Shown here one piece after another: positions 6,993 to 40,500 of a stretch of 55,527 bases of DNA (its first letter is position 1; each line of letters starts with the position of its first letter). Source of the DNA: Patescibacteria group bacterium. Lineage in GTDB: Bacteria > Patescibacteriota > Patescibacteriia > UBA1558 > UBA10009. The position numbers and the translations under genes are program-made. The notes below the pieces were generated by a model. It ran no database searches. It was not told the DNA's origin and saw only the letters and a list, made by a program, of their open reading frames with translations. The stretch spans positions 1-55,527 of the forward strand of contig JAHISB010000043.1 in assembly GCA_018818425.1 (NCBI GenBank). The letters run 5' to 3'.

Positions 6993-6994
6993 CT

Positions 6995-13272: not shown

Positions 13273-13357
13273 GGAACATGGGAGCATGTGAGCATTTGAT
13301 CTAATGTTCTCATGTTCTAATGCTCCAGTGTTCTAATGTTCTCATGTTCTAATGTTC
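13273..13357. repeat. 8-nt GARCAYKR word dyad, locus A (atpB|atpE junction)
   Basis: GGAACATG GGAGCATG TGAGCATTTGATC, then TAATGTTC TCATGTTC TAATGCTC CAGTGTTC TAATGTTC TCATGTTC TAATGTTC. Overlaps the atpB stop codon. Confidence 0.85.
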
Positions 13358-14257
13358 TTCCTCTGTACTGGCGATTGAAAAATAAACCAGCGTCAGCATG
13401 GCAAAAATAAGGGCTTGGATCATGCCGACGATAACTTCTAAAAACATAAAGGGTATGGGCAAAACAAAGGCAAAGATGACTGCCATGGCCGCCAGCAAAA
13501 CTTCGCCGGCAAAAATATTGCCGAACAACCTGAACGACAGCGATGCCACCTTGGCAATCTCGCCGATTATCTCGATTACTCCGACAAAAGCTTTGATAGG
13601 ATTGACAAAAATAATGGTCGGTTCTTTCTTAAATTTTTTGGGAATTTCGGCAAAGGCCTTAAGATTGATGAACTTATTAAAATATTTCCAAATGCCTACG
13701 GTAATAAAGCCAAAAAGATTAGAACCGATTACGGCAAAAAGCGCCAGAGCTAAAGTGGTATTTAAATCCGCTGTGCCTCCCCGGAAAAACGGCACGAACG
13801 CTGAATGGCCTGCGTGAGTTTCGATAAAACCGATTGAGCCAATGCCGGGGATTAATCCCAGCCAATTGTTAATCAAAATAAACATAAAAATAGCAAAAAC
13901 AATGGGAAAGATCTTTTTGGTTTTAGCCCGCGAGCCGGTAACTGAATCGGCCATTTTCATAGCGCCTTCTAATATTTCTTCGGCATAATTTTGCAGGCCT
14001 TTGGGAATTCGCTGAATTTTTTTGCCGATGATTACTGCCAATAGAACGATAATGATAACAGTGATCCATGAATTTAATAATGAGTTTGTTACCGTAAAAT
14101 TTCCTAAATTAAAAACCGGCTCCGCATACAAAGTCGGCTCATGGCTGATATGACCTTGGACTTCCTGCTGTCCCTGATTTTCCTCGCCTAAAACTTCCGG
14201 ACTCTGGGCGTCCTTAGTTTGATTAATATTTTCTGTTTGTTCAATATTTTGACTCAT
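13349..14257 (-). CDS. atpB: Fo ATP synthase a subunit
   Basis: 302 aa, polytopic. Conserved LSFRLFGNIFAGE arginine motif. Confidence 0.9.
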   Translation of the reverse strand: MSQNIEQTENINQTKDAQSPEVLGEENQGQQEVQGHISHEPTLYAEPVFNLGNFTVTNSLLNSWITVIIIVLLAVIIGKKIQRIPKGLQNYAEEILEGAMKMADSVTGSRAKTKKIFPIVFAIFMFILINNWLGLIPGIGSIGFIETHAGHSAFVPFFRGGTADLNTTLALALFAVIGSNLFGFITVGIWKYFNKFINLKAFAEIPKKFKKEPTIIFVNPIKAFVGVIEIIGEIAKVASLSFRLFGNIFAGEVLLAAMAVIFAFVLPIPFMFLEVIVGMIQALIFAMLTLVYFSIASTEEEH

Positions 14258-14344
14258 TTATTTTTTTATTTGATATTCGCGTATTATCTGTCGATAGACC
14301 TCGAGCCTGTCGAGAGGCGAGTTATCTGCGTGTTATCTGCGACA

Positions 14345-14641
14345 CTAATCCGCGCTATCTGTGTTATCCGCGCTATCCGCGCTTTTCTTCTCCTTAAGTT
14401 CCTTCTCAACCTTCTTAACGTACTTAATAGTTATTCTGACAATTCCTAAACAAGATATCGCAAAAGCTATGGCGGTCAGTCCTAAAAAAATCCACGGCTT
14501 GGTGCCGTACTTTTCATCCAGAGCTCTGCCGATAAACAACGCCAAGATGATGGGCGTCGCAATCCAGCCGGTAACTTGGGTAAAAATTACCATGCTTTGT
14601 TGCCACCATGATTCTTTCTGACTTTTATCTTTTAAGGACAT
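14345..14641 (-). CDS. AtpZ/AtpI-like small membrane protein
   Basis: 98 aa, two TM helices, first gene of the atp operon. The C-terminal SADSADNTDSAD is encoded by junction-repeat words. Confidence 0.55.
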   Translation of the reverse strand: MSLKDKSQKESWWQQSMVIFTQVTGWIATPIILALFIGRALDEKYGTKPWIFLGLTAIAFAISCLGIVRITIKYVKKVEKELKEKKSADSADNTDSAD

Positions 14642-14773
14642 AATCCGTAATTTGTGTTTAATTTGCGAATATTCGCGTCGTTAGCGATAATTCACGATAA
14701 TTCGTGATTTATTCGCCCACTTCGACGCGAGGCGAGAGTGTTATTCACGTCTAAAATTAAAAATTTCGCCATT

Positions 14774-14802
14774 ATTATACAAAAACTAGCGAAAAATATC
14801 AA
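14774..14802 (-). promoter_or_regulatory. Candidate atp operon promoter TTGATA-17-TATAAT
   Basis: Minus-strand -35 at 14802-14797 and -10 at 14779-14774, about 130 nt upstream of the atpZ-like ATG. Confidence 0.3.
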
Positions 14803-14859
14803 GGGTTTAAAATTCTAATTATCCCTAAAACTTTATTTTTGGCTAGGATTAGCAAAAAA

Positions 14860-15912
14860 TTATGACTCCTGCTTTGGCCTCTCCAGTTCCTGCACTTCTA
14901 TTTTTGATTCTGTCCCGGCGATTTTGACCACATCTTTATCAATCTTGCCAAACTCTTTATAAGCCGAGTTATACATATTTACAGTTGTGCCTAAATTACT
15001 GCCCAGCTTTTGCATGTAAGTATCGTAACTTGATAAATGCTTTGCCAGCATCTCTACGCGCTTTCTAATTTCTTTGGCCGACTCTTCTATTTGGAGTGCG
15101 CGCAATCCTTGAAGTACGGTTTGTAAATAAGCTAAAAATGAAGTTGGCGAAACAATAATAACTTTGTACTTATTGGCAGCCCGTTGAATTAAATTTTCAG
15201 TATCTTCAGTGACTGCGCCAATTTTATTAATCAATAAATCATAATAAATAGCTTCGTGAGGTATAAACATGAAAGCAAAATCCAAGGTGCCTTTATTAGG
15301 TTGAATATATTTTGCAGTTTCTTGAATTCTAATTTTTAAATCATTGACAAACAATTTTTCCAAACGGATTTTTTCTGCCTCGTTACGTTCAACCACCAAA
15401 CGATTGTAGTTTTCTAAAGAAAATTTGGAGTCAATAGGAATAATTTTATCTTTAACCTTAACCATAGCATCCACAATTAATTTATTTCCTTTTTCATCTT
15501 GTCCCAGATCATACTGCATCTGATAACTGCCAGGCGGCATAACGTTTTTTAATAATGTCTCTAAATAATATTCACCCACTACTCCGCGTTGCTTAGGATT
15601 TTTTAAAATGTCCTGTAAAGATTTTAACTGATCAGCAAAACCAACCACCTGTTTATTGGTTTCATCCAGCTTGGTTAATCTCTCGGTAACGTCTTTAATA
15701 ATTTGTTGCGATTGTCCTGATTGAGCTTGAAAAGATTTCTGATGTTCATTTAAACGAAAATCTAAAGTTTTACTGATTTCATTTATCTGATTTTGCAGCA
15801 TCAGCATCGACTGGTCGCCTTTTGTTTCCCTGCCTTTTTTGTTTATAAGCCAAAACAGCGCGGCAAAGCTGATTACTACGACTATAAGAGTGATTATTGA
15901 AAGTGTGTCCAT
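14860..15912 (-). CDS. rmuC: DNA recombination protein RmuC
   Basis: 350 aa. N-terminal TM, long coiled coil, C-terminal nuclease-like region with FAFMFIPHEAIY. Confidence 0.85.
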   Translation of the reverse strand: MDTLSIITLIVVVISFAALFWLINKKGRETKGDQSMLMLQNQINEISKTLDFRLNEHQKSFQAQSGQSQQIIKDVTERLTKLDETNKQVVGFADQLKSLQDILKNPKQRGVVGEYYLETLLKNVMPPGSYQMQYDLGQDEKGNKLIVDAMVKVKDKIIPIDSKFSLENYNRLVVERNEAEKIRLEKLFVNDLKIRIQETAKYIQPNKGTLDFAFMFIPHEAIYYDLLINKIGAVTEDTENLIQRAANKYKVIIVSPTSFLAYLQTVLQGLRALQIEESAKEIRKRVEMLAKHLSSYDTYMQKLGSNLGTTVNMYNSAYKEFGKIDKDVVKIAGTESKIEVQELERPKQES

Positions 15913-15983
15913 ATTTGACTATTTAAGGATTAAAAATTGATGAATAATATATTAATCTTTAGCCATCAGTCCTCAGTCCCCAA

Positions 15984-16790
15984 CTACAATCTAAACAAAT
16001 ATTTGGCATTCTGCCAAGTCTGCTCAATAACTTCCGCCTTGCTGATTCCCTTGAGCTCGGCGATTTTTTCGGCCACATATTCAACGTAAATCGGCTCGTT
16101 TCTTTTGCCCCGATGCGGTTCCGGAGCTAAAAACGGACAGTCGGTTTCTATTAACAGATGGTCTAAAGGCATTTCTTTAACAACCCGCTGCAGCTCTTCC
16201 GCTTTCTTGGTAAAAGTCACCGGACCGTCGATGCCTAAGTAATAACCGCGTTTGACAATTTCTCTGGCCGTGGCTACATCTCCGCCAAAGCAGTGAATGA
16301 CTGCCCGTTCAACTTTTTCCGCCACCAGTATTTCTAAAATATCATTATAAGCATTCCTTTTTTCCAGGCCATTGCGGCCGTGGCAAATTAGAGCCAGGTC
16401 TTTTTCTTTGGCTAATCTGATATGCTCTAAAAATACTCTTTTTTGCTCGGCAATGACTTCGGAAGTTAACAGTTCCTGGGCGCATCCTCTGTTAAAGGTC
16501 AAGTGATAATAATCAAAACCGGTTTCGCCCACAGCCACCACTTTATTATTGATGATGGCTCTGAAATCATAATAATCAAACTCCTCGTCAAAAACATGAA
16601 TGGGATGAAGGCCGACCGCAGCGTACATATTATGATGATTTTCGGCTAAGCGAACGGCCAGCATGCTGGTTTCAAGCTGCGCTCCAACATTAATAACTGC
16701 CATTTCTTTTATCTGGCAGCGTTTAATGACTTTTTCCCTGTCAATATTATAATCTTCGAAGTTAAGATGGGCGTGGGTATCTATTAACAT
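15984..16790 (-). CDS. tatD: TatD-family metal-dependent hydrolase/DNase
   Basis: 268 aa. Starts with IDTHAHL and contains the GETGFDY and IETDCPFL motifs. Confidence 0.9.
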   Translation of the reverse strand: MLIDTHAHLNFEDYNIDREKVIKRCQIKEMAVINVGAQLETSMLAVRLAENHHNMYAAVGLHPIHVFDEEFDYYDFRAIINNKVVAVGETGFDYYHLTFNRGCAQELLTSEVIAEQKRVFLEHIRLAKEKDLALICHGRNGLEKRNAYNDILEILVAEKVERAVIHCFGGDVATAREIVKRGYYLGIDGPVTFTKKAEELQRVVKEMPLDHLLIETDCPFLAPEPHRGKRNEPIYVEYVAEKIAELKGISKAEVIEQTWQNAKYLFRL

Positions 16791-16887
16791 ATCTTTTAAT
16801 TGTGAATTTCGAATGAACCTAATTTCGAATAAATTCCTAATTTCGAAATTCTAAATTCAATCGAAATTCAAAATTCGAAATTCGAAA

Positions 16888-17505
16888 CTAATCTGCATCT
16901 AAATTTATATCGGGATTACCTTCGATCAAATCGCCAAGATCATTAAAAGGAATGTTGTCCAAATTTAAGCCGCCAGGCAAGCTGGGCATGGCCGGCAGAT
17001 TACCGCTCCAGTTCTCTACCGAATCGGGAATAAAGGGCGAAGCAATTTTACCGATTGTTTCCAAAATGCCGCTGAATCTGGAATCCTCCACCTTTTCCTG
17101 AAAGCCGCCGGTAAAGGGCACAAAGGACAAAAAATAAACAATAATGCCGATAAAAATCAAACCCTCAATCAGCCCGAAAATGCCGCCCAGCAGACGGTTA
17201 AAAGTTTTTAAAAGGGGAATGATAGCGATAATATGAAAAATTTTATCAACCATCCAGAACAGCAAAGCTATAACCCGGTTGACCAGAATAAAAACCAGCA
17301 GAAAGCCCAAAACATTGGCCAGAACCGTTGAGCCGAACAACAAGCCTTCTAACATTTCTGCGGCCTCGTCATAATATTGTCCGGCCACAAAAGCGCCGAT
17401 AAACAAACCCACAATGCCGCCGACCGCTTCAATCAGCCCCAATTTTATGCCTTTCCACACAAAACCGGCCAGGATTATTAAAATGATAAAATCTATGACT
17501 GTCAT
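16888..17505 (-). CDS. cvpA: CvpA-family membrane protein
   Basis: 205 aa. IDFIILIILAGFVWKGIKLG N-terminus and four TM helices typical of the colicin V production family. Confidence 0.7.
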   Translation of the reverse strand: MTVIDFIILIILAGFVWKGIKLGLIEAVGGIVGLFIGAFVAGQYYDEAAEMLEGLLFGSTVLANVLGFLLVFILVNRVIALLFWMVDKIFHIIAIIPLLKTFNRLLGGIFGLIEGLIFIGIIVYFLSFVPFTGGFQEKVEDSRFSGILETIGKIASPFIPDSVENWSGNLPAMPSLPGGLNLDNIPFNDLGDLIEGNPDINLDAD

Positions 17506-17530
17506 AAGTTTATTTGATTAATGATTATTG

Positions 17531-17662
17531 GAACATTAGAACATTGGAACACTGGAACATTAGAACATGAGAACACTGGAACATTAGAACACTGGAACAT
17601 TAGAACATTAGAACACTGGAACATGAGAACATGGGATCAAGTGCTAACATGCTCACATGATC
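17531..17662. repeat. 8-nt GARCAYKR word array, locus B (13 direct units plus core)
   Basis: GAACATTA GAACATTG GAACACTG ... GAACATGG (17531-17634), followed by GATCAAGTGCTAACATGCTCACATGATC. Overlaps the metG stop codon. Orientation relative to the genes is opposite to locus A. Confidence 0.9.
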
Positions 17663-19127
17663 AAATTCTCTTAAACAATGGCTCCTTGGGTTTTTTGATT
17701 TTCTTGGCCGTAAATATCTCTGTGATTTTTTCTGAAGTTTGGGGGAGGAAAGGTTTTAACAAATCAGCTATAAGTAAAATTCTTTTAACATAAATTTTTA
17801 GTATAAAATCCAACTCTTCTTTCTTATTCTGATCTTTGGACAATTCCCAGGGCTTAGCGGCATCAATCAGACGATCTGTTTCGCTAATTATATTAAAAAT
17901 TTCCTTTAAAGATTCATTGAATTTGTATTTCTCAATGAATTGACAACACTTTTTGTAACTCTTATCTCTTTTAATATCAAATTCTTCTGTTTTAATATCG
18001 GTAATTAAGTATTTTTCTACCATATTAGAAACTCGCGAAACCAAATTACCCAAACCATTAGCTAAATCCGCATTATATCTTTCATCAAACAATTCTGCTT
18101 TAATATCTGCTTCCTGTCCAAAAGAAAATGGACTTAGTAATAAATAACGTGTACCGTCTGTCCCATACCTTTTTACTAATTCTTCAGGAGTAATAACATT
18201 ACCTAAAGACTTAGACATCTTTCTGCCATCAATTGTAAAAAAACCATGGATAAGCTCTCTTTTAGGTAAAGGTAAATCCAAAGCCATTAACAACGCTGGC
18301 CAATAAAGTGCATGAAACTTTAAAATATCCTGAGCTAGTAAATGCACATCAACGGGCCACCACTTTTTAAACTCTTTTAGATTATTTGGATAACCTATAG
18401 CAGTGATATAATTTGAAAGTGCATCTACCCAAACATATGATTTTTGTGTTTTATCAAAAGGGATGTCCACTCCCCATATTACTGTTTCACGAGATATAGA
18501 AAAATCAGTTACTCCTTGCTCAATTAATCCTAAGGTTTCGTTTTTTCTGCTTGTTGGTAATATTTCAAATTCATTTAACTCGATTTTCTTCTTTAAGTCA
18601 TCTAGGTAATCGCTTAATCTAAAAAACCAATTTTTTTCGGAAAGTTTTTCCGGCTTTTTCTGATGATAGGAGCATTTACCGTCAACTAATTCTTTTTCTG
18701 TGATAAACTTTTCACAACCAGTGCAGTAAAGACCTTCATAATTTCCCTGATAAATAGCTGGGTTACCTTTAGGAGTCTTAGCTTCTTTTAATTGAATAAA
18801 AATTTTTTGAACCGCCTTGATATGACGTTCTTCTGTTGTCCTAATAAAATCGTCATTATCGATATTTAAACTTTTCCAAGCTTTTTTAAAAAGGCCCGAA
18901 GTCTGGTCGCAAAACTTTTGCGGCGAGAGTCCTGAATGCTCGGCTGATTGAGCCACTTTTGTACCATGTTCATCAGTACCAGTTAGAAAAAAAACATTAT
19001 CTTTGCCCAACTTTTCACGATAATAGCGAGCTAAAACATCAGCCATTAAAGTAGTATAAGAATGGCCAATGTGTGGCTTATCATTAACATAATAAATTGG
19101 TGTGGTTATGTAAAATTTTTTGCTCAT
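17661..19127 (-). CDS. metG: Methionyl-tRNA synthetase
   Basis: 488 aa. HIGH (PHIGHSYT), KMSKS and a Cys knuckle CTGCEKF ... CSYH. Confidence 0.95.
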   Translation of the reverse strand: MSKKFYITTPIYYVNDKPHIGHSYTTLMADVLARYYREKLGKDNVFFLTGTDEHGTKVAQSAEHSGLSPQKFCDQTSGLFKKAWKSLNIDNDDFIRTTEERHIKAVQKIFIQLKEAKTPKGNPAIYQGNYEGLYCTGCEKFITEKELVDGKCSYHQKKPEKLSEKNWFFRLSDYLDDLKKKIELNEFEILPTSRKNETLGLIEQGVTDFSISRETVIWGVDIPFDKTQKSYVWVDALSNYITAIGYPNNLKEFKKWWPVDVHLLAQDILKFHALYWPALLMALDLPLPKRELIHGFFTIDGRKMSKSLGNVITPEELVKRYGTDGTRYLLLSPFSFGQEADIKAELFDERYNADLANGLGNLVSRVSNMVEKYLITDIKTEEFDIKRDKSYKKCCQFIEKYKFNESLKEIFNIISETDRLIDAAKPWELSKDQNKKEELDFILKIYVKRILLIADLLKPFLPQTSEKITEIFTAKKIKKPKEPLFKRI

Positions 19128-19184
19128 AAAATATTTATGAATTCGCGACTTATTAGTGAGAGATAGGTGAATATTAGCATTTTA

Positions 19185-19847: not shown

Positions 19848-19977
19848 ACAACTAGGTTATAGATTATAATTAATAGAAAATTCTAATTTATCTCGAGCGG
19901 AGTCCCGAGCGAGTCGAGGGGCGGAGTCGAGAGGTAAATTACCTATTGGAGTAGCGACTATATATAAAATACCCATA
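19806..19977. repeat. 43-bp direct duplication of the rsmI 5' end flanking an 86-bp insert
   Basis: 19806-19848 and 19935-19977 are identical at 42/43 positions, and the single difference is synonymous. The insert 19849-19934 ends in CGAGCGGAGTC-type GC-rich words. Confidence 0.9.
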
Positions 19978-19978
19978 G

Positions 19979-21044: not shown

Positions 21045-21143
21045 GAGAACATGGGAGCATGTGATCATGGGAGCATGGGAGCACTTGATCTCATGTTCTC
21101 ATTTTCCAGTGTTCTAATGCTCTAATGTTCCAGTGTTCTAATG
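21045..21143. repeat. 8-nt GARCAYKR word dyad, locus C
   Basis: GAGAACATGGGAGCATGTGATCATGGGAGCATGGGAGCACTTGATC faces TCATGTTC TCATTTTC CAGTGTTC TAATGCTC TAATGTTC CAGTGTTC. Overlaps the M16 stop codon. Confidence 0.85.
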
Positions 21144-22409
21144 ATTTTTGAGTATTTTTAAAAACTTTTTTTTATCTTGATAAGGCCCGATGATGCCCAG
21201 ATTGATTTTCTGGTTTTTGATGATTTCTTGGGCTGTTTGCCGGACCTGGCCGGCTGTGACTTTTTCCACTTTCTTTAACTGCTGGTCTATGGTTTCTATT
21301 TTATTTTTCAAAAGCTGCTGAGCGGCCAGCCACTGAATTCTGGCCGCTGAATCTTCTAGCCCCAAAATCAATTTGCCTTTGATATATTCCTTGCTCCGCT
21401 TCAGTTCTTCGGCAGTGACATCTTTATTAACCGCTTTTTCCAGCTCTTTAAGAATGGTTTTTATAGCTAAATTAATTTTTGATTTATCCAGTCCGGCATA
21501 AACCGCCAACGCCCCGGTGTCCTGATACGGGCTAAGGTCGGTTTTAATATAATAGGCCAGCCCCAGCTTTTCCCTGATTTCCAAAAACAATCTAGAGCTC
21601 ATATTACCTCCTAAAATAATGGCTAACAACAATAACGGGTAGTTCTTGGGATTAGTGATTTTATAAGCGGGAAATCCCAAGGCCAGATGAACCTGCTCGG
21701 TGGCTTTGGTTTTTAAATTGATTCTAGGGCTTTTTTGGAGACTGCTAAATTTTTTAAATGAACTTTTTTTAAAACCGCTGGCTGGCTGATTAAAATATTG
21801 ACTGGCCAGCTTTTTAGTTTTTGGCTGGTTGAATTTGCCGCCCACCGCCACGATAACGTTATCAGCCGCATAATTAGCTTTAAAATAATTAACAATTTCG
21901 GCATGAGAAATTTTTCGGATATTCTCTTTGGAACCGCTGATTACTCTGGCCAGCGAACTGCCCGCAAACACCGCCTCTTCAAAAACATTATCAACCATCA
22001 AAAGCGGATTGTCTTCGTACATATTAATTTCTTCGATAATCACTCCTCTTTCTCTTTCCATCTCTTCTTTGGCAAAAAGTGAATTATGGAGCATGTCCGA
22101 AACCACATCCAAAGCCAGCTCTAAATGTTCGTGATTAACCTTAATGTAATAGCCGGTATGGTCTTTGGCTGTAAAAGCGTTAAAGCTGGCGCCGACGCCG
22201 TCCAGTTCCTTGGTAATATCTAAGCTGGTCGGCCGTTTTTTGGTGCCTTTAAACAGCAGATGTTCGACAAAATGCGAAATGCCATTAAGCTTTGCGGATT
22301 CATAGCGCGAACCGACTTTAACCAATATTAAAACCGTGACCGTTTCTGTGCCTTCCAAGGGCGCCAACAGCAGTTTGGTTTTATTATGTAAAGTTTCTAG
22401 TGTATACAT
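21138..22409 (-). CDS. M16 (pitrilysin) family zinc peptidase
   Basis: HFVEH (HxxEH) zinc motif and downstream EE. I prefer the ATG at 22409, because the 8 extra residues of the track ORF are encoded by repeat locus D. Confidence 0.85.
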   Translation of the reverse strand: MYTLETLHNKTKLLLAPLEGTETVTVLILVKVGSRYESAKLNGISHFVEHLLFKGTKKRPTSLDITKELDGVGASFNAFTAKDHTGYYIKVNHEHLELALDVVSDMLHNSLFAKEEMERERGVIIEEINMYEDNPLLMVDNVFEEAVFAGSSLARVISGSKENIRKISHAEIVNYFKANYAADNVIVAVGGKFNQPKTKKLASQYFNQPASGFKKSSFKKFSSLQKSPRINLKTKATEQVHLALGFPAYKITNPKNYPLLLLAIILGGNMSSRLFLEIREKLGLAYYIKTDLSPYQDTGALAVYAGLDKSKINLAIKTILKELEKAVNKDVTAEELKRSKEYIKGKLILGLEDSAARIQWLAAQQLLKNKIETIDQQLKKVEKVTAGQVRQTAQEIIKNQKINLGIIGPYQDKKKFLKILKNH

Positions 22410-22563
22410 GGGAGCATGGGAGCATGAGAACATGGGAGCAAGTGTTCTAATGCTCTAATGTTCTCATGTTCCAGTGTTTTAATGCTCTAATGTTCTCATG
22501 TTCCAGTGTTCTAATGCTCTAATGTTCTCATGTTCCAGTGTTTTAATGTTCTGGTGTTCTAAT
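22407..22563. repeat. 8-nt GARCAYKR word dyad, locus D (largest, with a 32-nt higher-order repeat)
   Basis: A short forward arm CATGGGAGCATGGGAGCATGAGAACATGGGAGCA, then about 15 complementary units. These include (TAATGCTC TAATGTTC TCATGTTC CAGTGTTY) x3. Overlaps the glyQS stop codon. Confidence 0.9.
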
Positions 22564-23959
22564 ACCCAAACTTCTCTCTAAAATAATCCCTAAGTTCTTT
22601 GATGTTCACCCGATCCTGCTTCATGCTGTCACGGTCTCTGACGGTTACTTTTTTATCTTCTAATGAATCAAAATCAATGGTTACACAATAAGGCGTGCCG
22701 ATTTCATCCTGCCTGCGGTAGCGCTTGCCGATTGTTTGAGTTGTATCGTAAGCGCACATATAGTTTTCTTTAAGCTGGCCGTAAACACTCATCGAAAGCT
22801 CTTCTAATTTTTCTTTTTTTGAAAGCGGCAGGATAGCTATTTTAATCGGCGCTAAATCTTTATGAAGCTTAAGCACAGTTTCTGTTTCGTGCTTAGCATC
22901 TTTATCGCCGCTTCTGGCTTCCATCTCGGTATAAGCATCAACAATAAAAGCCAGAACCGACCTGTCGATACCGCCGGAAGTTTCTATAATATACGGCAGG
23001 TATTTCTCTTTGGAATCTTCGTCTAAAATTTTTAAATCGTGTCCCGAAAATTCTTCGTGTCTTTTTAAATCGAAATCACCGCGATTATGAATGCCTTCCA
23101 GTTCTTTATCGGCAAAAGGGAAATCGTACTCTATATCCACTGCAGCTTTGGCATAATGCGCCAGTTCGTTGTTTTTATGCCGGCGGAGTTTAAGTTTAGC
23201 TTTATTAAGCCCCATTTTCTGATACCATTCGAATCTCTGCTGTTGCCAGTATTCAAACCATTTTTCCGCTTCAGCGGGATGAACAAAATACTGCATCTCC
23301 ATCTGTTCAAACTCCCTGGTCCTGAAAGTAAAATTGCCCGGGGTAATTTCGTTCCTAAAGGCCTTGCCGATCTGGGCGATGCCAAAAGGCATTTTTTTAT
23401 TGGCGGACATCCTCACGTTTTCAAAATTGACGTAAATGCCCTGGGCCGTTTCCGGTCTTAAATAAATTTCCGAAGCTTTGTTTTCCAACGCGCCCATAAA
23501 AGTTTTAAACATTAAATTAAAATCTCTGATTTCTGTCAGCTCGCCATCGCATTCCGGACATTTTATTTTATGCTTTTTAAAATCCGCCTGCCTAAAATCC
23601 GGCTTAATGCCCTTGGATTCTAAAAGATGGTCAGCGCGGAATCTTTTTTTGCATTTTTTACAGTCAACCAGCGGGTCAGTAAAACCTTCCAGATGACCAG
23701 AAGCTTCCCAGATTTTTGGATGCATTAAAATTGAAGAATCCAAGCCCGCCACATCGTCTCTTAGCTGAACCATTTCTTTCCACCAGGCCTTTTTAAGATT
23801 ATTCTTGAGTTCTATGCCTAAAGGACCGTAATCGTAGCAGGAATTAATACCGCCGTAGATTTCGGATGATTGAAAGATGAAGCCGCGGCGTTTGGCTAAA
23901 GAGACTATTTTTTCCATTGTATCTTGTTTGTCCTCTGATTTATCTGATTTCTTTGACAT
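22559..23959 (-). CDS. glyQS: Glycyl-tRNA synthetase (alpha2 type)
   Basis: 466 aa with class II motifs and typical GlyQS sequence (FRNEITPGNFTFRTREFEQME). Confidence 0.95.
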   Translation of the reverse strand: MSKKSDKSEDKQDTMEKIVSLAKRRGFIFQSSEIYGGINSCYDYGPLGIELKNNLKKAWWKEMVQLRDDVAGLDSSILMHPKIWEASGHLEGFTDPLVDCKKCKKRFRADHLLESKGIKPDFRQADFKKHKIKCPECDGELTEIRDFNLMFKTFMGALENKASEIYLRPETAQGIYVNFENVRMSANKKMPFGIAQIGKAFRNEITPGNFTFRTREFEQMEMQYFVHPAEAEKWFEYWQQQRFEWYQKMGLNKAKLKLRRHKNNELAHYAKAAVDIEYDFPFADKELEGIHNRGDFDLKRHEEFSGHDLKILDEDSKEKYLPYIIETSGGIDRSVLAFIVDAYTEMEARSGDKDAKHETETVLKLHKDLAPIKIAILPLSKKEKLEELSMSVYGQLKENYMCAYDTTQTIGKRYRRQDEIGTPYCVTIDFDSLEDKKVTVRDRDSMKQDRVNIKELRDYFREKFGY

Positions 23960-26971: not shown

Positions 26972-27000
26972 CTTTAAAAAATTACCAAACACTAAAACTA

Positions 27001-27080
27001 AAAGAACCAAACAAGAACCAAAATTAAAAATAAAAAATTTGTATTTTGGAAATTTTAATTTGTTTGGTTCTTGGTTCTTT
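27001..27080. repeat. GAACCAAA word dyad upstream of the Clp gene
   Basis: AAAGAACCAAACAAGAACCAAAA faces TTTGTTTGGTTCTTGGTTCTTT. A related segment occurs in-frame in tgt (29271-29345). Confidence 0.7.
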
Positions 27081-27088
27081 TGATTTGG

Positions 27089-28570: not shown

Positions 28571-28663
28571 GTCGCTGACAAACGCTGACTGACGCGAACT
28601 TACGCAAACCGCTGACATTGATGGATAGGTTTCGCGGTTCGCATAAGTTCGCGTCGTTCGCAT
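28571..28663. repeat. GCTGAC/GCGAAC word-repeat dyad (same family as 1522-1638)
   Basis: GTCGCTGAC AAACGCTGAC TGACGCGAAC TTACGCAAACCGCTGAC faces GTTTCGCGGTTCGC ATAAGTTCGC GTCGTTCGC. Confidence 0.6.
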
Positions 28664-32740: not shown

Positions 32741-33292
32741 TTATATATAATCAATCTCAATTAATTCTTTTTCTGTTTTGTAATGATTATGAAATGATGA
32801 GTAAGGCCAAGTTATGGGATCGTCAACGATTCGATGCTTAACAGCGTTATAGTTGATGTAATCTATTTTATTATCTAATTCCCGGTCCGAACGAACAATT
32901 CTGTCGTGGAAAGAACGTTGCCAAATGGAATTTAGACATCGTTGGCCTTCTAACCACGCGCCGGGCAGCCGACAGCCAGGCTGTCGGCTGCGGAGATCGT
33001 GGTTATATTTGCGAATATCACGCGCAGTTCGATATTTTATCAACTGCATTATCTTGGAAATATTTTTTCCTCTTCTAGGTAGAATTAATAAATGAACATG
33101 CCAAGGTATAATACAATAGGCGTATAATCTAAATTTTAACTTTCTTCGATAAAAATCAATATTTTTTAATAAAATCTGACAATATTCATTATTGGTAAAT
33201 ATTCTTTGATCATTAATTGTATTTGATGTGACAAAATAAATCTCACCATCAACATTCATTCTTATTTGAGGCATAAAATCGCTTTTCGTCAA
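32741..33292 (-). CDS. IS200-like Y1 (HUH) transposase, REP-associated tyrosine transposase (RAYT)-like
   Basis: HUH motif HVHLLI and C-terminal YINYNAVKH tyrosine helix. The track start is TTG, and an ATG alternative lies at 33274. Contains a REP palindrome in-frame and has two more copies just upstream. Confidence 0.8.
   Translation of the reverse strand: MTKSDFMPQIRMNVDGEIYFVTSNTINDQRIFTNNEYCQILLKNIDFYRRKLKFRLYAYCIIPWHVHLLILPRRGKNISKIMQLIKYRTARDIRKYNHDLRSRQPGCRLPGAWLEGQRCLNSIWQRSFHDRIVRSDRELDNKIDYINYNAVKHRIVDDPITWPYSSFHNHYKTEKELIEIDYI
32965..32991. repeat. Perfect 27-bp REP palindrome inside the RAYT gene
   Basis: GCAGCCGACAGCC A GGCTGTCGGCTGC, encoding SRQPGCRLP. Confidence 0.9.
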
Positions 33293-33304
33293 TTGTTATC
33301 TATC

Positions 33305-33442
33305 CGGCAACCGACAGCCAGGCTGTCGGCTTCGTGGTTCGGTGAATGATTGCTGTCGGCTGCGGATGTGCGGTAGGCAATGGATGTGAGGCAGACAACG
33401 GATGTGCGGCAACCGACAGCCAGGCTGTCGGCTTCGTGGTTC
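33305..33442. repeat. REP cluster: two identical 36-bp units flanking GGATGTG(C/A)GG repeats
   Basis: CGGCAACCGACAGCCAGGCTGTCGGCTTCGTGGTTC at 33305-33340 and 33407-33442. A half-site TGCTGTCGGCTGCGG at 33351-33365. Three copies of an 18-bp GGATGTG... unit lie between them. Confidence 0.9.
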
Positions 33443-33448
33443 CGCAGT

Positions 33449-36454: not shown

Positions 36455-36533
36455 AATAGGTTCGTGATTAGTTCGTGAATATTCGTGTCATTTGTGATTA
36501 GTTCGTGAAATATTCGTAAATAATAATAATTAC

Positions 36534-36562
36534 ATCATACTGAAATATTGCTGATAAATCAA
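36534..36562 (-). promoter_or_regulatory. Candidate ileS promoter TTGATT-17-TATGAT
   Basis: Minus-strand -35 at 36562-36557 and -10 at 36539-36534, just downstream of the terminator at 36575-36607. The 5' UTR consists of TTCGTGA word repeats. Confidence 0.35.
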
Positions 36563-36574
36563 GCCATCCATACC

Positions 36575-36607
36575 AAAAAGCCCCCAAGCATAGCAAGGGG
36601 CTTTTTG
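36575..36607 (-). terminator. Hairpin terminator AGCCCC-loop-GGGGCT with flanking A and T runs
   Basis: AAAAAGCCCCCAAGCATAGCAAGGGGCTTTTT. On the minus strand the stem is followed by TTTTT. Confidence 0.5.
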
Positions 36608-36840
36608 ATATTCAAGGAACAATGGGCGCATAACCCAATAATTTATTACGATTTGCGATTTGCGATTTAAAAAAGCATAGCTCTAATGGTCTGCCACAAA
36701 TTCTGTTTAACCAACGCCCGGCGCCTATAACAGCGCGGCCAGCCGACAATCTTAATTTTCTGGCACGATATTTTAGGATGATAAATTTTCTTAGTTTCTT
36801 TTTTATTCATAGGGTGTGGTGGGTAGGGCGTAGGGTGTGA

Positions 36841-37071
36841 TTAACGATTAACGATCTTCCTTATTTCATCAATGCGCAGGCGCTTTTGGTATTGAAGCTT
36901 TTGAATTTTTTTAATCTGGCTGACGGCGTAGCTTTCGTTATACAAGCGATACCCGCCCTGGCTGCGAGCCGCTTCTTTTAACAAGCCTTCGTTAGTATAA
37001 AAATTAATGGTCGAAGGCAAAACCCCGACTTTGCGGGATAATTCACCGATTTTTAAAAGTTTTCCTGGCAT
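36841..37071 (-). CDS. MerR-family HTH transcriptional regulator (short)
   Basis: 76 aa. LKIGELSRKVGVLPSTINFYTNEGLL ... GGYRLY is a typical MerR N-domain. Confidence 0.75.
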   Translation of the reverse strand: MPGKLLKIGELSRKVGVLPSTINFYTNEGLLKEAARSQGGYRLYNESYAVSQIKKIQKLQYQKRLRIDEIRKIVNR

Positions 37072-37185
37072 TTTTTTGTTTTTATTTCCGAACAGGCATA
37101 TTTATCCACATATATCACCTGCTACTATATATCATATCATATAAACTATAAAGTGTAAAGCGGTACTTTCTACTTTATGGTTTAT

Positions 37186-37225
37186 TCCGCACCTTCCCTG
37201 AATACCCCGCAGGAAAGTGCGGGAT
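37186..37225. repeat. CCGCACCTTCC / CCCCGCAGG hairpin element (short copy)
   Basis: TCCGCACCTTCC-CTGAATACCCCGCA-GGAAAGTGCGGGA. It resembles the reverse complement of 55497-55526. Confidence 0.6.
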
Positions 37226-37299
37226 TTATATAAATTAAAAATGACCCTTACAGGCCACTGCTCCAATCTAATATTCAAATAGTCAAATAATCTAATATT

Positions 37300-39297
37300 C
37301 TAATATCCAATTAATTTTAAGAATTCTTTTTCTGAGATTATTTTTACCCCGAGCTTCTTCGCCTTATCAAACTTTGAGCCCGGCTCATCGCCCGCTACAA
37401 CGTAATCGGTTTTCTGGCTGACGGATTCGGAGATCTGCCCGCCTAAGCTTCTGATTTTATCTTTAGCTTCATCTCGGGGCAGTGATTCCAGCGAGCCGGT
37501 TAAAACAAAAGTTTTGCCCGATAATTTGCCTGATTGTACTTTGCTTGATGATACTTGCACTCCAACGTTTTCAAGCTTTTTTAAAAAATTCTGACTTTCG
37601 CGGTCTCTAAAATACTCATAAATACTCTTGGCCACCACGCCGCCAATATCCCTGATTGACTCAAGCTCTTCTAAATCTGCCGACTCCAGTTTAGTTAAAC
37701 TGCCGAACTGATGAGCCAAGGCAATGGCTGTTTCCTCGCCCACATGGCGGATGCCCAGGGCGTTGATAAATTTTGCCAATTCAATTTCTTTGACTGACTG
37801 AATTGATTCAACAAGATTTTTAGCGGACTTCTCGGCAAACCTTTCCAGCGGTTCTAAATCGCCTTCTGTTAATTTAAATAAGTCTGCCGCGTCCGTAACC
37901 AGGCCTTCGTTAATCAGCTGCTCAACGATTTTTGGCCCTAAACCTTCTATATTAAAGCCGGCTTTGGAAACAAAATGATTGATTTTTTCCCTTTCAACGG
38001 CAAAGCAGTTTTTGTTGGAACAGTAATGATTGACTTCGCCTGATGGTTTGATGACATTGCTGTTGCAGATCGGGCACTTGGCCGGCATGTTAAATTTTTT
38101 CTCTTTGCCGGTTCTAAGCTTGGGCAGAACTTTAACGATATCGGGAATAATATCGCCGGCTTTTTGGATAATCACCGTATCGCCGAGACGGACATCCAGG
38201 CGGTTGATTTCATCTTGGTTATGGAGCGTGGCTCTGGAAACGGTTGAGCCGGCCACCCTGACTGGTTTTAAAATTGCTACCGGAGTCAAAGTTCCTACCC
38301 TGCCCACCTGAACCTGAATATCTTCAACAATAGTGGCGGCCTGTTCGGCCGGGAATTTATAAGCGGCCATCCACCTTTCTGCCTTGCCGATATGCCCGAG
38401 CTTTTTTTGAATATTGATGTTGTTGATGACCACGACCACGCCATCTGTCAAATACTCCAATTTTTCTCTGGCTTTTTCCCATTTTTTTAAATAGTTGCCT
38501 ACTGCCGGCAAATCTTTGCAATGCTGATTATGAGGATTGGTTTTAAAACCCAGCTCTTTTAACAGCTGGTGGACCTCTTCGTGGGTTTTTTGGCCGGCAG
38601 CGGTGATAATTTCAAAAGCAAAGCAGTCCAGCTTCCTGGAGGCGGTGATTTGGGGGTCTAGCTGGCGGATGCTGCCCGCAGCCACGTTGCGGGGATTGGC
38701 AAACTTGGGCTGGCCTTTTTTTTCCATTTCTTTATTGATTTTCTCAAAAACTTTCTTGGTCATCACCACCTCTCCCCTGACTTCAAAAACTTTGGGCAAT
38801 TTAATTTTAGAAGATTTTTGAAGTTCAAGCGGAATTGATTCAATAGTTTTTAAATTTTGCGTGACTTCCTCGCCGGTCTGGCCGTCGCCCCGGGTGGCTC
38901 CCCTGATTAAAACGCCGTCTTCATAAGTTAGAACTACTGTTAAGCCGTCCAGTTTAAGCTCGCAGTAATAATCATAGCTATCTTTGGCTATTTTCTGATT
39001 CTTCTCTGCCCATTTCCGCAATTCTTCCAAACTAAAAACATCCTCTAAAGATAAAATTTGCTTTGAGTGCGTTACTTTTTTAAATTTATCTAAGGGCTTA
39101 CCGCCCACCCGCTGGGTCGGCGAACTGGGCGTGATAAATTCCGGGAAGCGCTGTTCCAGTTCGTAAAGCTCGTGCTTTAAGCTGTCCAAAGCCGCGTCGG
39201 AAATTTCCTGCTTATCTAAAACATGATAAAGATAGCGGTGAGTTTCTATTTCTTTCTTTAATTTTTCTATCCTGGTTTTAGCTTCCTGTTTATTCAT
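37300..39297 (-). CDS. ligA: NAD-dependent DNA ligase
   Basis: 665 aa. KLDG adenylation motif, OB fold, Zn finger CPICNSNV ... C, HhH and BRCT domains. Confidence 0.97.
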   Translation of the reverse strand: MNKQEAKTRIEKLKKEIETHRYLYHVLDKQEISDAALDSLKHELYELEQRFPEFITPSSPTQRVGGKPLDKFKKVTHSKQILSLEDVFSLEELRKWAEKNQKIAKDSYDYYCELKLDGLTVVLTYEDGVLIRGATRGDGQTGEEVTQNLKTIESIPLELQKSSKIKLPKVFEVRGEVVMTKKVFEKINKEMEKKGQPKFANPRNVAAGSIRQLDPQITASRKLDCFAFEIITAAGQKTHEEVHQLLKELGFKTNPHNQHCKDLPAVGNYLKKWEKAREKLEYLTDGVVVVINNINIQKKLGHIGKAERWMAAYKFPAEQAATIVEDIQVQVGRVGTLTPVAILKPVRVAGSTVSRATLHNQDEINRLDVRLGDTVIIQKAGDIIPDIVKVLPKLRTGKEKKFNMPAKCPICNSNVIKPSGEVNHYCSNKNCFAVEREKINHFVSKAGFNIEGLGPKIVEQLINEGLVTDAADLFKLTEGDLEPLERFAEKSAKNLVESIQSVKEIELAKFINALGIRHVGEETAIALAHQFGSLTKLESADLEELESIRDIGGVVAKSIYEYFRDRESQNFLKKLENVGVQVSSSKVQSGKLSGKTFVLTGSLESLPRDEAKDKIRSLGGQISESVSQKTDYVVAGDEPGSKFDKAKKLGVKIISEKEFLKLIGY

Positions 39298-39384
39298 AGT
39301 TCTAATAATATTAATTAATTCTCAATTCTTTGTTAATCGTAAATTGTGAGATAAACTCTCAACAAAAAAACAACAAATCTCGGA

Positions 39385-39407
39385 AGCCGACAGCCAGGCT
39401 GTCGGCT
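39385..39407. repeat. REP palindrome copy
   Basis: AGCCGACAGCCAGGCTGTCGGCT, followed by two small hairpins (CCAGCCAGAGGCTGG and TCGGCCTTTGGCCGA). Confidence 0.85.
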
Positions 39408-39465
39408 GCAACGTTTAATCCCCAGCCCTCCCAGCCAGAGGCTGGTCGGCCTTTGGCCGAAATCA

Positions 39466-40314
39466 TCAATACTTAACAATAGGGGCTTCGCTGAACAAAA
39501 CATAGTCGTAAAGTCCGGAAAGCGGCGCCACTTCCGGCATAGTAACCAAAATGGCCTGTTTAGAGGGCTGGGAAGAATCAGCGGGAAAGGCGCCTAGTCC
39601 CTTAATTTTCACTCGTCCGGCTATACCCACGGCACAAAGACCCAAAGGATCGCATCTCTCATCATTTTGAGGGTCAATAGTATCATAAGCAACTATCTCT
39701 AAATAAGTAATTGGAGCATAGCGCGCTGTCATTCTGACGTTATATAAATAGGTGTCCCCGCTTCCTAAATTAATTACATAGCCCAAATCTTCTATTAAAT
39801 TATCCAAGCTTATTTTAATTCCTTGATCCGTCCCTGGGGTTAACTCTCCAGCTATGGTCCAGGGAACCCAGCGCACCTCCAGCCACGAGCCCGCCTCTGC
39901 TGACCAATTAACTATTAAAGACTTAATGGGAGTCTCAAAAGGAGTTAACGAATGAGGAGTATACAAATCCAACTCCAATATCTCGTCCTGGGCTAAAGTT
40001 TTATAAATTACCGGTTCGGTGTCTTGGGCAATTATTTTGTATTCAGCGTTATTGTCCAGCAACACCTCGGTTAAATTAAATGATGAGGGGTGAATATCCC
40101 GCTGTCTTACCTGATACAAGCCTTTTTCCACAGCGCTTTCGGCCGCATAATAAGCCACCATAGCTCTGTCCAGCTGACTGGATTGCTGAATCTCGCTCAT
40201 AATTAAAGTGCCGGTGGCAAAACTGATGGTTATAATTCCGGTCATAACCATCAAGGACAGCAGTAAAACACCTCCTGTGGTTGAAGTTTTAAATTTTGGT
40301 TTGCTGAACTGCAT
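39466..40314 (-). CDS. PilX-like minor pilus component
   Basis: 282 aa. N-terminal hydrophobic helix then SEIQQSSQLDRAMVAYYAAESAVEKGL, resembling the PilX N-domain. Last gene of the minor-pilin block. Confidence 0.55.
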   Translation of the reverse strand: MQFSKPKFKTSTTGGVLLLSLMVMTGIITISFATGTLIMSEIQQSSQLDRAMVAYYAAESAVEKGLYQVRQRDIHPSSFNLTEVLLDNNAEYKIIAQDTEPVIYKTLAQDEILELDLYTPHSLTPFETPIKSLIVNWSAEAGSWLEVRWVPWTIAGELTPGTDQGIKISLDNLIEDLGYVINLGSGDTYLYNVRMTARYAPITYLEIVAYDTIDPQNDERCDPLGLCAVGIAGRVKIKGLGAFPADSSQPSKQAILVTMPEVAPLSGLYDYVLFSEAPIVKY

Positions 40315-40366
40315 TTTAATTTATTTTATACCCCGTTGCTTTTATAATTCCGAAGCGGCGGAGCTT

Positions 40367-40500
40367 AGCATGAGAACATTGGAGCATGGGAGCATGAGAA
40401 CATTGGAGCATGGGAGCATTGGAGCATGGGAGCATTTGATCATATGTTCTAATGCTCTAATGTTCAAGTGTTCCAGTGTTCCCATGCTCCAATGTTCCAT
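40367..40500. repeat. 8-nt GARCAYKR word dyad, locus E
   Basis: Eight forward units (GAACATTG GAGCATGG GAGCATGA ...) meet at GAGCATTTGATC with seven complementary units (TAATGCTC TAATGTTC ... CCATGCTC CAATGTTC). Confidence 0.9.

Follow-up and report, generated by a model that had tools for sequence, protein, structure and literature searches.

Octamer-armed palindromic repeats at gene junctions of a Patescibacteria contig

Introduction

The elements of the REP/BIME/REPIN type (repetitive extragenic palindromes, bacterial interspersed mosaic elements and REP doublets) are extragenic imperfect palindromes of Proteobacteria that go with RAYT (REP-associated tyrosine transposase; TnpA-REP) transposases and can stabilise upstream mRNA, and the short tandemly repeated repetitive (STRR) sequences of cyanobacteria are heptamer intergenic repeats. 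Pneumococcal BOX, organized as boxA-boxB(n)-boxC, and the mycobacterial interspersed repetitive units (MIRU) are modular intergenic repeats with a variable tandem core. Here we describe a family of 8-nt word arrays that form dyads at five loci in a contig of 55,527 nt from a Patescibacteria group bacterium (GenBank assembly GCA_018818425.1, contig JAHISB010000043.1), the whole of which is referred to as the window. The explanation that we favour, with a probability of about 0.55, is that the five loci are copies of one dispensable, lineage-specific, non-coding intergenic repeat, which has reached several gaps and owes its growth to replication slippage.

Direct repeats of the heptamer TAACTGA have been reported from marine Beggiatoaceae, Cyanobacteria and Bacteroidetes (MacGregor 2015, PMC4679880), with 169 direct sets and 1 indirect set in BOGUAY, and a protein-binding role with S1, Csp and CsrA as candidates has been proposed for them. 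The same paper summarises the "long simple sequence repeats" (LSSRs) of Mrazek et al. 2007, which by that summary have units of 5–11 nt. Borg tandem repeats (PMC9879509) have units such as 18–36 nt in perfect copies, about half of them inside open reading frames (ORFs). TIGR arrays occur in the Candidate Phyla Radiation (CPR) and have a period of ~36 nt, edge and loop repeats, two variable spacers and a Nop-domain Tas gene (PMC12045711). A search of the literature on CPR intergenic repeats found no description of an octamer dyad element. A preliminary description of the window had assigned the arrays to no described element class, which was too strong, as LSSRs, TAACTGA repeats, STRR and REP/BIME had already been described.

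Results

Detection and anatomy of the octamer elements

A three-unit octamer pattern (GARCAYNNGARCAYNNGARCAY, at most one mismatch) gave 52 matches in the window, every one within the five loci, and none in 100 dinucleotide-preserving shuffles of the window that served as control. Tandem Repeats Finder (TRF) placed period-8 arrays at each of the five loci, and a scan for clusters of at least four octamer words found no sixth locus in the window. The unit was shown to be a contiguous 8-nt word with an invariant hexamer (GARCAY or RTGYTC) and a variable dinucleotide. All five loci lie in spacers, with a gene overlap of at most 6 nt. They are head-to-tail arrays of a unit in the 5–11-nt range beyond chance, as intergenic short tandem repeats are; the same unit recurs at many, mainly extragenic loci (five in 55 kb and four on contigs of sample Ga0180007, see below), and, as in REP, the element is an extragenic imperfect palindrome in many copies. 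Outside the arrays the octamer is scarce (15 matches in all), and a DNA-uptake sequence, which would show dense genome-wide scatter, was rejected on this ground.

All five loci, designated A to E (Table 1), are unequal-armed imperfect dyads. In the common layout, found on the + strand in A, C, D and E and on the − strand in B, a left arm of GAGCATGG-type words is followed by the centre GAGCAYTTGATCNNATGTTC, which is non-periodic and missing from D, and by a right arm of TAATGTTC, TCATGTTC and CAGTGTTC words. Sequence reading and TRF agreed with the preliminary description on the five positions, on the arm counts of A, C, D and E (3 vs 7, 5 vs 6, 4 vs 15 and 8 vs 7 units) and on a 32-nt super-repeat in D (TRF 22441–22560, 3.8 copies, 93% matches). 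The core GAGCA(T/C)TTGATC had rightly been placed in A, C and E and not in D, and is present in B as well, on the other strand. Locus B is inverted, as had been said, and it is not made of forward units and core only: it carries a short complementary arm of 2–3 units and is the same element as the other four in opposite orientation.

Element length ranges from ~53 nt (copy L212a of Ga0180007) to 157 nt (D), and arms have 2 to 15 units. The inverted arms of C, D and E span 22–63 nt with 74–86% complementarity. Element E is the most nearly symmetric copy: its inverted arms of 63 nt are 76% complementary, and the outer 16 nt of both arms are perfectly so. Elsewhere each arm has for the most part its own variable dinucleotides, with no covariation between the two arms, which argues for independent slippage in each arm rather than selection on a precise structure.

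Reproducibility of the sequence

Contigs L001 and L223 of Logan assembly SRR6514274 showed base-for-base identity with the window until they break, L001 inside array B and L223 inside array A. As the two assemblies agree up to the breaks, the window sequence is reproducible; the unit numbers of the longest arms (B and D) are uncertain, being not guaranteed by short reads. Other contigs with identical proteins either came from the same sample or ended within arrays. Collapse or a chimera of low-complexity reads could be suspected, since the window was assembled from short metagenomic reads, both Logan contigs end within an array (A or B), and B and D are near read length. However, the flanks are unique and syntenic with those of relatives, the assemblies agree, the arrays are imperfect and locus-specific rather than uniform, and the same element with different arm lengths and flanks is present on three contigs of another project. 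An assembly artefact is therefore hardly credible, and the octamer arrays are a real repeat family.

Copies in other sequences

A metagenome scan with the core GAGCATTTGATCNNATGTTC gave 94 matches, and real elements were found on three contigs only (L128, L190 and L212), all from sample Ga0180007. The remaining ~90 matches were at the estimated chance level and without arrays, and a widespread core motif was rejected. Together with the window this makes nine copies, eight of which have the non-periodic core; this sharing points to one founder and not to independent slippage. L212 and the window also have at least five other word families in common (an 11-mer ATTCACGGATAA.., a 9-mer dyad, AATCTAAT, AATTTCG and TTTTTGA), which indicates that the Ga0180007 contigs belong to the same or a very close lineage. 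The preliminary description had considered that the family might be confined to the window and keep no position in any relative; the first does not apply, given the three Ga0180007 contigs, and the second does, as far as the syntenic relatives below are concerned.

Genome contigs were scanned with a loose pattern (GARCAYNN ×4, without control). At least 117 stretches from many phyla were detected, nearly all of them one-orientation arrays of other words, and a universal octamer was rejected. The sole similar dyad among the matches listed, in a Patescibacteria single-cell genome (L011), is a looser one of four GAACATTW units, a 30-nt loop and four ATGTTCYC units. Among IMG/VR viral contigs, GARCAYKR gave 10 stretches and the column-permuted control octamers 17, 5 and 17. 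Since the permuted controls were not rarer, there is no enrichment of this class of octamer words across sequence space, and sharing between phyla is unsupported. Four contigs of an IMG/VR "giant virus" bin (L226–L229, GVMAG-M-3300013094-1, G+C 52–55%) contain long arrays of the same words (TAATGTTC ×15, TCATGTTC ×12, GAGCATTA/GAGCATTTA ×28 and TAGAACAT) in one orientation and without the TTGATC core. Given the control scans, this word sharing is probably coincidence. A cyanobacterial origin of the bin was rejected, the HIP1 motif (GCGATCGC) not being enriched there.

Absence from syntenic relatives

The best named relatives of the window by glycyl-tRNA synthetase (GlyRS) were Candidatus Komeilibacteria, "Patescibacteria group" and Candidatus Magasanikbacteria sequences (66–78% identity), which places the window in a CPR bacterium close to Candidatus Komeilibacteria. 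Eight syntenic contigs, L213–L215 and L217–L221, with GlyRS identities of 74–79%, were compared. The gene order GlyRS-M16-AI2E-methylase-MetRS-CvpA-TatD...RmuC...AtpI-AtpB-AtpE was kept in L213–L215 and L217 and partly in L218–L220. No GARCAY arrays were found in any of the eight. The matching gaps measured 11–38 nt in L213 and held other words in L218 and L219, whereas L217 had unrelated GC-rich palindromes (TTGCGAGGAGCGAAGCGACGAAGCAATC...GGGATTGC...) in the GlyRS/M16 and M16/AI-2E gaps (11405–11527 and 12791–12880); in L220 the GlyRS and M16 genes overlap and a GC-rich hairpin follows M16 (2549–2610). The lack of arrays in these relatives shows the element to be young and dispensable, and a hairpin not to be required at these junctions. 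To judge from these gaps, different lineages have filled the same junctions with different hairpin elements.

Two further contigs, L222 and L224, which encode an identical AtpE, show how atpB ends natively: with GAAGAACATTAA and GAAGAACATTAG/TAA, not followed by an octamer dyad. This native word GAAGAACATTAG is the very one at which array A begins, and the final unit of A codes for the E-H-stop end of atpB on the minus strand. Either the right arm of A grew from the end of atpB, or microhomology allowed the element to be captured at this site. In L224, a gene for a "23S rRNA intervening sequence protein" (PF05635; 1992–2378) lies between atpB and atpE, where the window has the octamer dyad.

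Gene context and transcription signals

Fifty of the 52 delimited genes of the window are on the minus strand. The genes flanking the arrays, all of them on the minus strand, are co-directional and four stop codons lie within arrays, as the preliminary description had noted, and its spurious ORF (MIIGTLEH...) corresponds to a + strand ORF over array B. The stop register ..AT TAG AACA is common to atpB, M16 and GlyRS. The true M16 start is likely to be the ATG of MYTLE..., within a CCCATG unit of the array; the M16 gene that follows GlyRS in relative L219 begins ATGTATACACTTGA. With this start, array D would be the entire GlyRS–M16 spacer.

The best sigma-70-like site of the region was found upstream of atpI, which places array A within the atp operon. 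No promoter-like site was associated with any array, and promoter-like sites numbered 29, compared with 26.6 ± 4.7 in shuffled sequence; for terminator-like sites the figures were 16 and 9.7 ± 3.1, so that both counts are close to those of shuffled sequence. Intrinsic (Rho-independent) terminators combine a short, G+C-rich stem-loop with a U-run behind it. Of the 16 terminator-like sites between 12900 and 22900 none was at an array, no such site was found in 39900–40900, and the array stems are long and A/U-rich without T-runs. No T-run terminator stands beside any array, and of the roles suggested before, intrinsic termination was rejected. A comparison of the whole window with Rfam 15 gave no match at gathering score, and a tRNA scan of the window was empty. 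The spacers are without purine-rich ribosome-binding sites.

A phase-variable locus has its tract in an ORF or in the promoter spacing of a surface or restriction-modification gene and shows unit-number polymorphism in populations. The arrays had been suggested to be such contingency tracts, in which gain or loss of 8-nt units alters stop–start spacing or frame and switches the downstream gene. Such tracts are very liable to slippage, a unit of 8 nt does not divide by 3, and D spans the junction from the GlyRS stop to the M16 start, which unit changes would alter. Nevertheless, this role was judged highly unlikely and does not fit the gene context: the arrays are in spacers of housekeeping operons, outside ORFs and away from the promoters of any variable surface gene; their neighbours are essential housekeeping genes and not surface or restriction-modification genes; and both strands have stops in most frames, so that no frame is kept open. 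For the same reason an orientation chosen for stop codons in all frames was rejected.

Besides the octamer dyad, the atpB–atpE gap holds a small hairpin that ends 25 nt and begins 65 nt before the atpE start codon. It is conserved in four relatives, where 5 of its 12 pairs show compensatory changes, and the neighbouring dyad is not conserved. It is a candidate leader structure of the c-subunit gene, independent of the octamer dyad, and it shows how a selected RNA structure looks in this gap.

Strand asymmetry of folding

RNA folding energies differed by 10–29 kcal/mol between strands. They were −36.4 kcal/mol (z −7.4) on the + and −22.9 on the − strand for A, −41.8 and −26.6 for C, −57.4 and −40.3 for D (22400–22569) and −87.8 (z −13.1) and −58.7 (z −7.1) for E; for B the − strand folded better (−27.2, compared with −14.0 on the + strand). 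Owing to G-U wobble pairing of GAGCAU with AUGUUC, RNA of one strand forms far more stable folds than RNA of the complementary strand. Over seven asymmetric copies, 56 G-U pairs were counted on the favoured and 10 on the other strand (A 5/0, C 11/2, D 11/4, E 10/1, L128 5/1, L212a 5/0 and L212b 9/2). With DNA parameters A, C, D and E were biased the same way but less, and B was unbiased (−6.6 vs −6.7). No strand bias was found in L190 and L011, and the dyads of other word families in the window were strand-symmetric.

In A, C, D, E, L128, L212a and L212b the favoured strand runs antisense to the neighbouring genes, and in B it is the sense strand. Large hairpins can thus form (z down to −13), as the preliminary description had proposed for the mRNA, but at four of the five window loci the best-folding strand is the antisense one. 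The 7:1 split (p about 0.07) is suggestive only and is confounded with replication, as gene and replication direction coincide in all these contigs. To judge from GC skew and the direction of the genes, the minus strand would be the leading one, and the orientation preference may reflect replication-dependent stability of hairpin-forming repeats rather than RNA function.

A strand-specific RNA element, in which the G-U-rich strand (GAGCAUGG... paired with ...UAAUGUUC) acts antisense as a cis-antisense regulator or an RNase III-processed small RNA, would account for the consistent G-U asymmetry of seven copies next to symmetric dyads of other words, for the size of the folding difference and for the antisense position at seven of the eight asymmetric copies. 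We nevertheless consider it unlikely. No promoter-like site was found upstream of the arrays on the favoured strand, site counts being at shuffle level, and there was no Rfam match; unit number and arm length vary freely, the dinucleotides show no covariation outside the outer part of E, and relatives lack the element. Moreover, the asymmetry could be a founder property that was copied along, and the orientation split has the weakness and the confounding described above.

Y1 transposase genes of the window

Two Y1 transposase-like ORFs are encoded in the window (Table 1). The first is RAYT-like, with a Pfam Y1_Tnp match, similarity to the E. coli TnpA-REP structure 4ER8 (E = 7e-9), an HVH motif and a YINYN tyrosine region. 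A 19-nt palindrome, CCGACAGCCAGGCTGTCGG, has four exact copies, of which two are just upstream of this ORF, one is in frame inside it and one is distant. The ORF and its palindromes resemble the classical REP/RAYT arrangement, here in the genome of a CPR bacterium. The second ORF, also Y1_Tnp-like, is on the opposite strand to its neighbours and gave no sequence match in PDB. It contains, within its coding sequence and after the HUH motif, a perfect 56-nt palindrome (GGCAGGGGCACACGTAGGGGCAATTCAT/ATGAATTGCCCCTACGTGTGCCCCTGCC), and its relative position is close to that of the REP insertion in the first ORF.

If the dyads were REP/REPIN-type cargo of such a RAYT (Y1, IS200-like) transposase, cut and pasted as single-stranded DNA hairpins, the Y1 machinery in the window would find its use, and the dyads are indeed REPIN-sized, extragenic and present in both orientations; several copies also abut TTAG, reminiscent of IS200/IS605 tetranucleotide targets. 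This origin appears quite improbable, however, because the RAYT-like gene is flanked and interrupted by the different palindrome CCGACAGCCAGGCTGTCGG, the dyads have no conserved termini or GTAG-like head, their arms are variable arrays unlike REPs, and TTAG is simply part of the repeat unit. No cognate Y1 gene flanked by or adjoining octamer dyads was found within the window or at any locus examined, and tblastn of both Y1 ORFs against all loci examined gave no homologue near dyads. Part of the CCGACAGCCAGGCTGTCGG motif (GGCCGACAGCC) was observed beside an octamer element in L212 (~6775).

Arrays of other short words

The window contains 40 arrays of period 6–12 (7.2 per 10 kb; 1.6 in total in shuffled sequence), a density ~20× the shuffled rate. 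Densities per 10 kb were 14.7 in L212 (shuffled 0.4 in total), 7.0 in L128 (0.0) and 4.3 in L190 (0.8). The relatives L213–L217 were about shuffle level, with 2.0–2.3 per 10 kb (3–5 arrays; shuffled 2.0–2.4 in total) in L213–L215 and 0.9 (2 arrays; shuffled 0.2) in L217. Most spacers of the window hold arrays of other 7-, 8-, 9- and 11-nt words, from no fewer than eight unrelated families, and many of these arrays directly adjoin an upstream gene's stop codon. Dyads are also found among these families (Table 1). Several of the families recur on L212 and in L222 and L224; the latter two have an orthologous 7-mer dyad (ATCGCRT.../...ACGATACA) with differing unit numbers in the atpE/atpF gap, and its GATACA word is also present in the window at 7773–7812. 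These recurring words with differing unit numbers show that members of the clade have word families in common, and that the families change locus and are quick to change in length.

The number of word families also bears on a protein-binding platform, in which GAACA/UGUUC words in DNA or mRNA would recruit many copies of a sequence-specific protein, so that core operons would come under a regulon acting post-transcriptionally or at the level of the nucleoid. An invariant GARCAY with a variable 2-nt linker resembles a recognition word with a spacer, the lack of purine-rich ribosome-binding sites would fit, and, like TAACTGA repeats (PMC4679880), copies occupy junctions between the stop of one gene and the start of the next, among them those of atp, aminoacyl-tRNA synthetase and ribosomal-protein genes. 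We regard such a platform as rather doubtful: no candidate binder emerged from Pfam scans that covered 50 of the 52 gene ORFs of the window, a period of 8 bp puts successive sites on different faces of B-DNA, the eight or more unrelated word families would need many binders, close relatives with the same operons lack the arrays, and the word class was no commoner than its permuted controls in IMG/VR.

Other candidate classes

CRISPR (clustered regularly interspaced short palindromic repeats) loci have repeats of 23–50 nt and unique spacers of similar length, usually with cas genes. The octamer units are contiguous and without spacers, in agreement with the preliminary description, and no Cas family was found in the Pfam scans. 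The same scans gave no Nop-domain match; TIGR-Tas was rejected on this ground as well as on the period of 8 nt, the 93% identity of the 32-nt super-repeat, which excludes variable spacers, and the occurrence of several short loci instead of one long array. A miniature inverted-repeat transposable element (MITE) has defined terminal inverted repeats, a target-site duplication and uniform length; the flanks of the nine copies showed no target-site duplication and no sharp termini, and length is not uniform. LexA/Cheo-box sites were rejected because the words are direct repeats and not GAAC-N4-GTTC.

Other features of the window

The atp operon is split between atpD and atpC by a 116-aa ORF without Pfam match and a GIY-YIG nuclease ORF. 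This insert also has a palindrome with arms of ~28 nt (CTGTCATCCCGACCAAGGCGGAGGGATCT ... AGATTCCTCGGCAAGCTCGGAATGACAG), and similar GTCATYCYGAGCGA-type palindromes are present at the end of contig L216. A Fic/DOC-domain ORF follows a small helix-turn-helix ORF with an 11-nt overlap and resembles a toxin-antitoxin pair. Inside the type IV pilus gene cluster, a stretch with a G+C of 0.24 at 46–48 kb (~0.40 elsewhere) contains two ORFs that match no Pfam family, one of 549 aa on the + strand and one of 112 aa. The stretch is possibly an island gained by horizontal transfer.

Table 1. Positions of the octamer elements, their flanking genes and other features. Positions refer to the window unless a contig is named.
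Feature	Position	Strand	Units or sequence	Context
Element A	13274..13357	+		atpB/atpE spacer
A left arm	13274–13297		3 units, GAACATGG GAGCATGT GAGCATTT	
A centre	13298–13301		GATC	
A right arm	13302–13357		7 units, TAATGTTC/TCATGTTC/TAATGCTC/CAGTGTTC	
Element B	17531..17662	−		metG/cvpA spacer; inverted relative to other four
B long arm	17531–17634		13 units	
B centre	about 17635–17638		GATC	
B short arm	17639–17662		2–3 units, AAGTGCTA ACATGCTC ACATGATC	contains metG stop
Element C	21047..21143	+		M16 peptidase/AI-2E transporter spacer
C left arm	21047–21086		5 units	
C centre	21087–21090		GATC	
C right arm	21091–21143		6–7 units	M16 stop TAG in last unit
Element D	22407..22563	+		whole GlyRS/M16 spacer (if M16 starts as proposed)
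D left arm	22412–22443		4 units	no TTGATC core
D right arm	22441–22563		~15 units	32-nt four-word super-repeat ×3.8
Element E	40367..40500	+		between pilin-like gene (40512–41186) and unknown gene (39466–40314)
E left arm	40374–40437		8 units	
E centre	40438–40441		GATC	
E right arm	40442–40497		7 units	
Copy L128				between M48 peptidase gene and YafQ-like toxin gene
Copy L190				contig end, adjoining S49 peptidase gene
Copies L212a, L212b				rpmJ/rpsM and rpsK/rpsD spacers, inside rpmJ-rpsM-rpsK-rpsD operon
atpB	13349–14257	−		stop 13349–13351 inside array A
atpE	12981–13190	−		other flank of A
metG (MetRS) stop	17661–17663	−		inside array B; other flank CvpA
M16 peptidase stop	21138–21140	−	TAG	inside array C; other flank AI-2E-family transporter
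M16 likely start	22407–22409		ATG	array D
Class-II GlyRS stop	22559–22561	−	TAG	inside array D; other flank M16
Spurious ORF	17521–17793	+	MIIGTLEH...	
atpE-upstream hairpin	13205–13250	−		relatives: L222 2938–2980; L224 2443–2483; L217 21132–21175
Other word arrays (1)	7773–7812, 10219–10242, 11749–11832, 12282–12343, 12888–12919, 14317–14342, 15960–15983			9-mer dyad at 11749–11832
Other word arrays (2)	16798–16892, 26995–27086, 28591–28655, 36460–36522, 37265–37315, 44000–44124, 52991–53016			dyads at 26995–27086, 28591–28655 and 44000–44124 (11-mer)
First Y1 ORF	32741–33292			RAYT-like
19-nt palindrome	33311, 33413		CCGACAGCCAGGCTGTCGG	just upstream of first Y1 ORF
19-nt palindrome	32969		CCGACAGCCAGGCTGTCGG	in frame inside first Y1 ORF
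19-nt palindrome	39387–39405		CCGACAGCCAGGCTGTCGG	distant copy
Second Y1 ORF	51535–52122	+		
56-nt palindrome	51822–51875			inside second Y1 ORF
atpD–atpC insert	6809–7732			
GIY-YIG nuclease ORF	6995–7282			atpD–atpC insert
Palindrome of insert	~6885–6975			atpD–atpC insert
Fic/DOC ORF and helix-turn-helix ORF	1665–2358			
Low-G+C stretch	45455–48222			type IV pilus gene cluster
549-aa ORF	45664–47313	+		low-G+C stretch

Discussion

The shared core, the arm-specific growth and the absence from syntenic relatives support the occurrence of a single repeat that spread recently within one lineage. A founder dyad would have been copied into several intercistronic spacers, possibly by microhomology or template switching at ...ATTAG gene ends or by a trans-acting single-strand transposase, and each arm would then have expanded and contracted independently by 8-nt slippage, giving the unequal arms and the 32-nt super-repeat seen in the present anatomy. 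The copies are dispensable, as syntenic relatives do without them. Because of their position inside operons they are probably co-transcribed, and an imperfect hairpin of 25–60 bp would then stand directly after the stop codon. By analogy with REP/BIME, such a hairpin might act as a 3′-exonuclease barrier, be cleaved as a substrate of RNase III, or modulate translational coupling.

Several observations weigh against this explanation. No dispersal machinery is tied to the element, which has neither target-site duplications nor sharp termini, and both Y1 ORFs of the window are associated with other palindromes and not with the octamer dyads. All copies beyond the window come from one other sample, whose genome could be of the same species. 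The better-folding strand is antisense at seven of the eight asymmetric copies; this would not be expected of an mRNA element, and slippage by itself does not account for it. The unrelated hairpins at the orthologous junctions of L217 and L220 could mean that a hairpin there is useful rather than neutral.

A more far-reaching proposal is that the spacers of core operons (atp, ribosomal proteins and aminoacyl-tRNA synthetases) were remade from families of 7–11-nt word arrays into a lineage-specific regulatory layer, in which the octamer dyads would be the commonest module. The G-U-rich strand would be transcribed antisense as a wobble-rich hairpin of 30–60 bp and give rise to small RNAs, or be bound by a protein with an 8-nt register, setting cistron ratios in an organism with almost no classical regulators. 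We put this forward as a long shot.

Under the favoured explanation of a slippage-grown intergenic repeat, the window is a natural experiment on the birth of a repeat (native last codons of atpB), its spread (the core at nine loci) and its growth (arm-specific slippage). A lineage with array-filled spacers contradicts the picture of small, gene-dense Patescibacteria genomes; the gaps of its syntenic relatives are 11–40 nt long or filled with other sequences. The arrays also matter for binning and assembly, since they break short-read contigs at operon junctions and create spurious ORFs. The features worth following are the strand asymmetry and the genome-wide bloom of word arrays. If the asymmetry reflects RNA function, the element would represent a class of regulator inside operons that is new, and in a phylum without cultures; if not, it would be a clean case of orientation-biased survival of hairpin-forming repeats.

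Compared with known systems, the octamer arrays share with TAACTGA repeats, STRR and LSSRs a short word repeated head-to-tail at many intergenic loci of one genome, the location at gene junctions (ribosomal-protein operons included) without canonical ribosome-binding sites in the spacers, a sporadic and lineage-specific occurrence, and slippage as presumed growth mechanism. They differ from TAACTGA repeats and STRR in their unit, which is 8 nt (GARCAYKR) and not 7 with different words, and in their CPR host. Unlike TAACTGA repeats, they have inverted paired arms around a conserved non-periodic TTGATC core and mostly abut the stop of the upstream gene instead of the start of the next.

Like REP/BIME, the octamer dyads are present in many dispersed copies in both orientations, often between cistrons after stop codons, they are dispensable and lineage-specific, and a RAYT-like gene is present in the window. 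However, REPs have a fixed length of 20–40 nt with a conserved GTAG head, whereas the octamer dyads are variable 8-nt arrays without a conserved head whose ends fade into the flanks, and the RAYT-like gene goes with a different, GC-rich palindrome. BOX and MIRU are likewise intercistronic with an internal tandem copy number that varies by locus, and MIRUs overlap flanking stop and start codons, as do arrays A, C and D. Their units are larger (40–100 nt in MIRU and 45 nt in boxB), MIRUs are direct repeats with small ORFs and not dyads, the hosts belong to other phyla, and there is no sequence similarity. Borg repeats (PMC9879509) resemble the octamer bloom in being genome-specific, young, fast-evolving, in many cases intergenic and virtually absent from related genomes, and some are predicted to form hairpins; each is nearly unique to its locus, whereas the octamer family recurs at many loci as dyads. 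The octamer dyad is therefore best filed not as a new kind of system but as a hybrid variant of intergenic word arrays and palindromic repeats, the unusual feature of which is a palindrome with arms made of octamer microsatellites.

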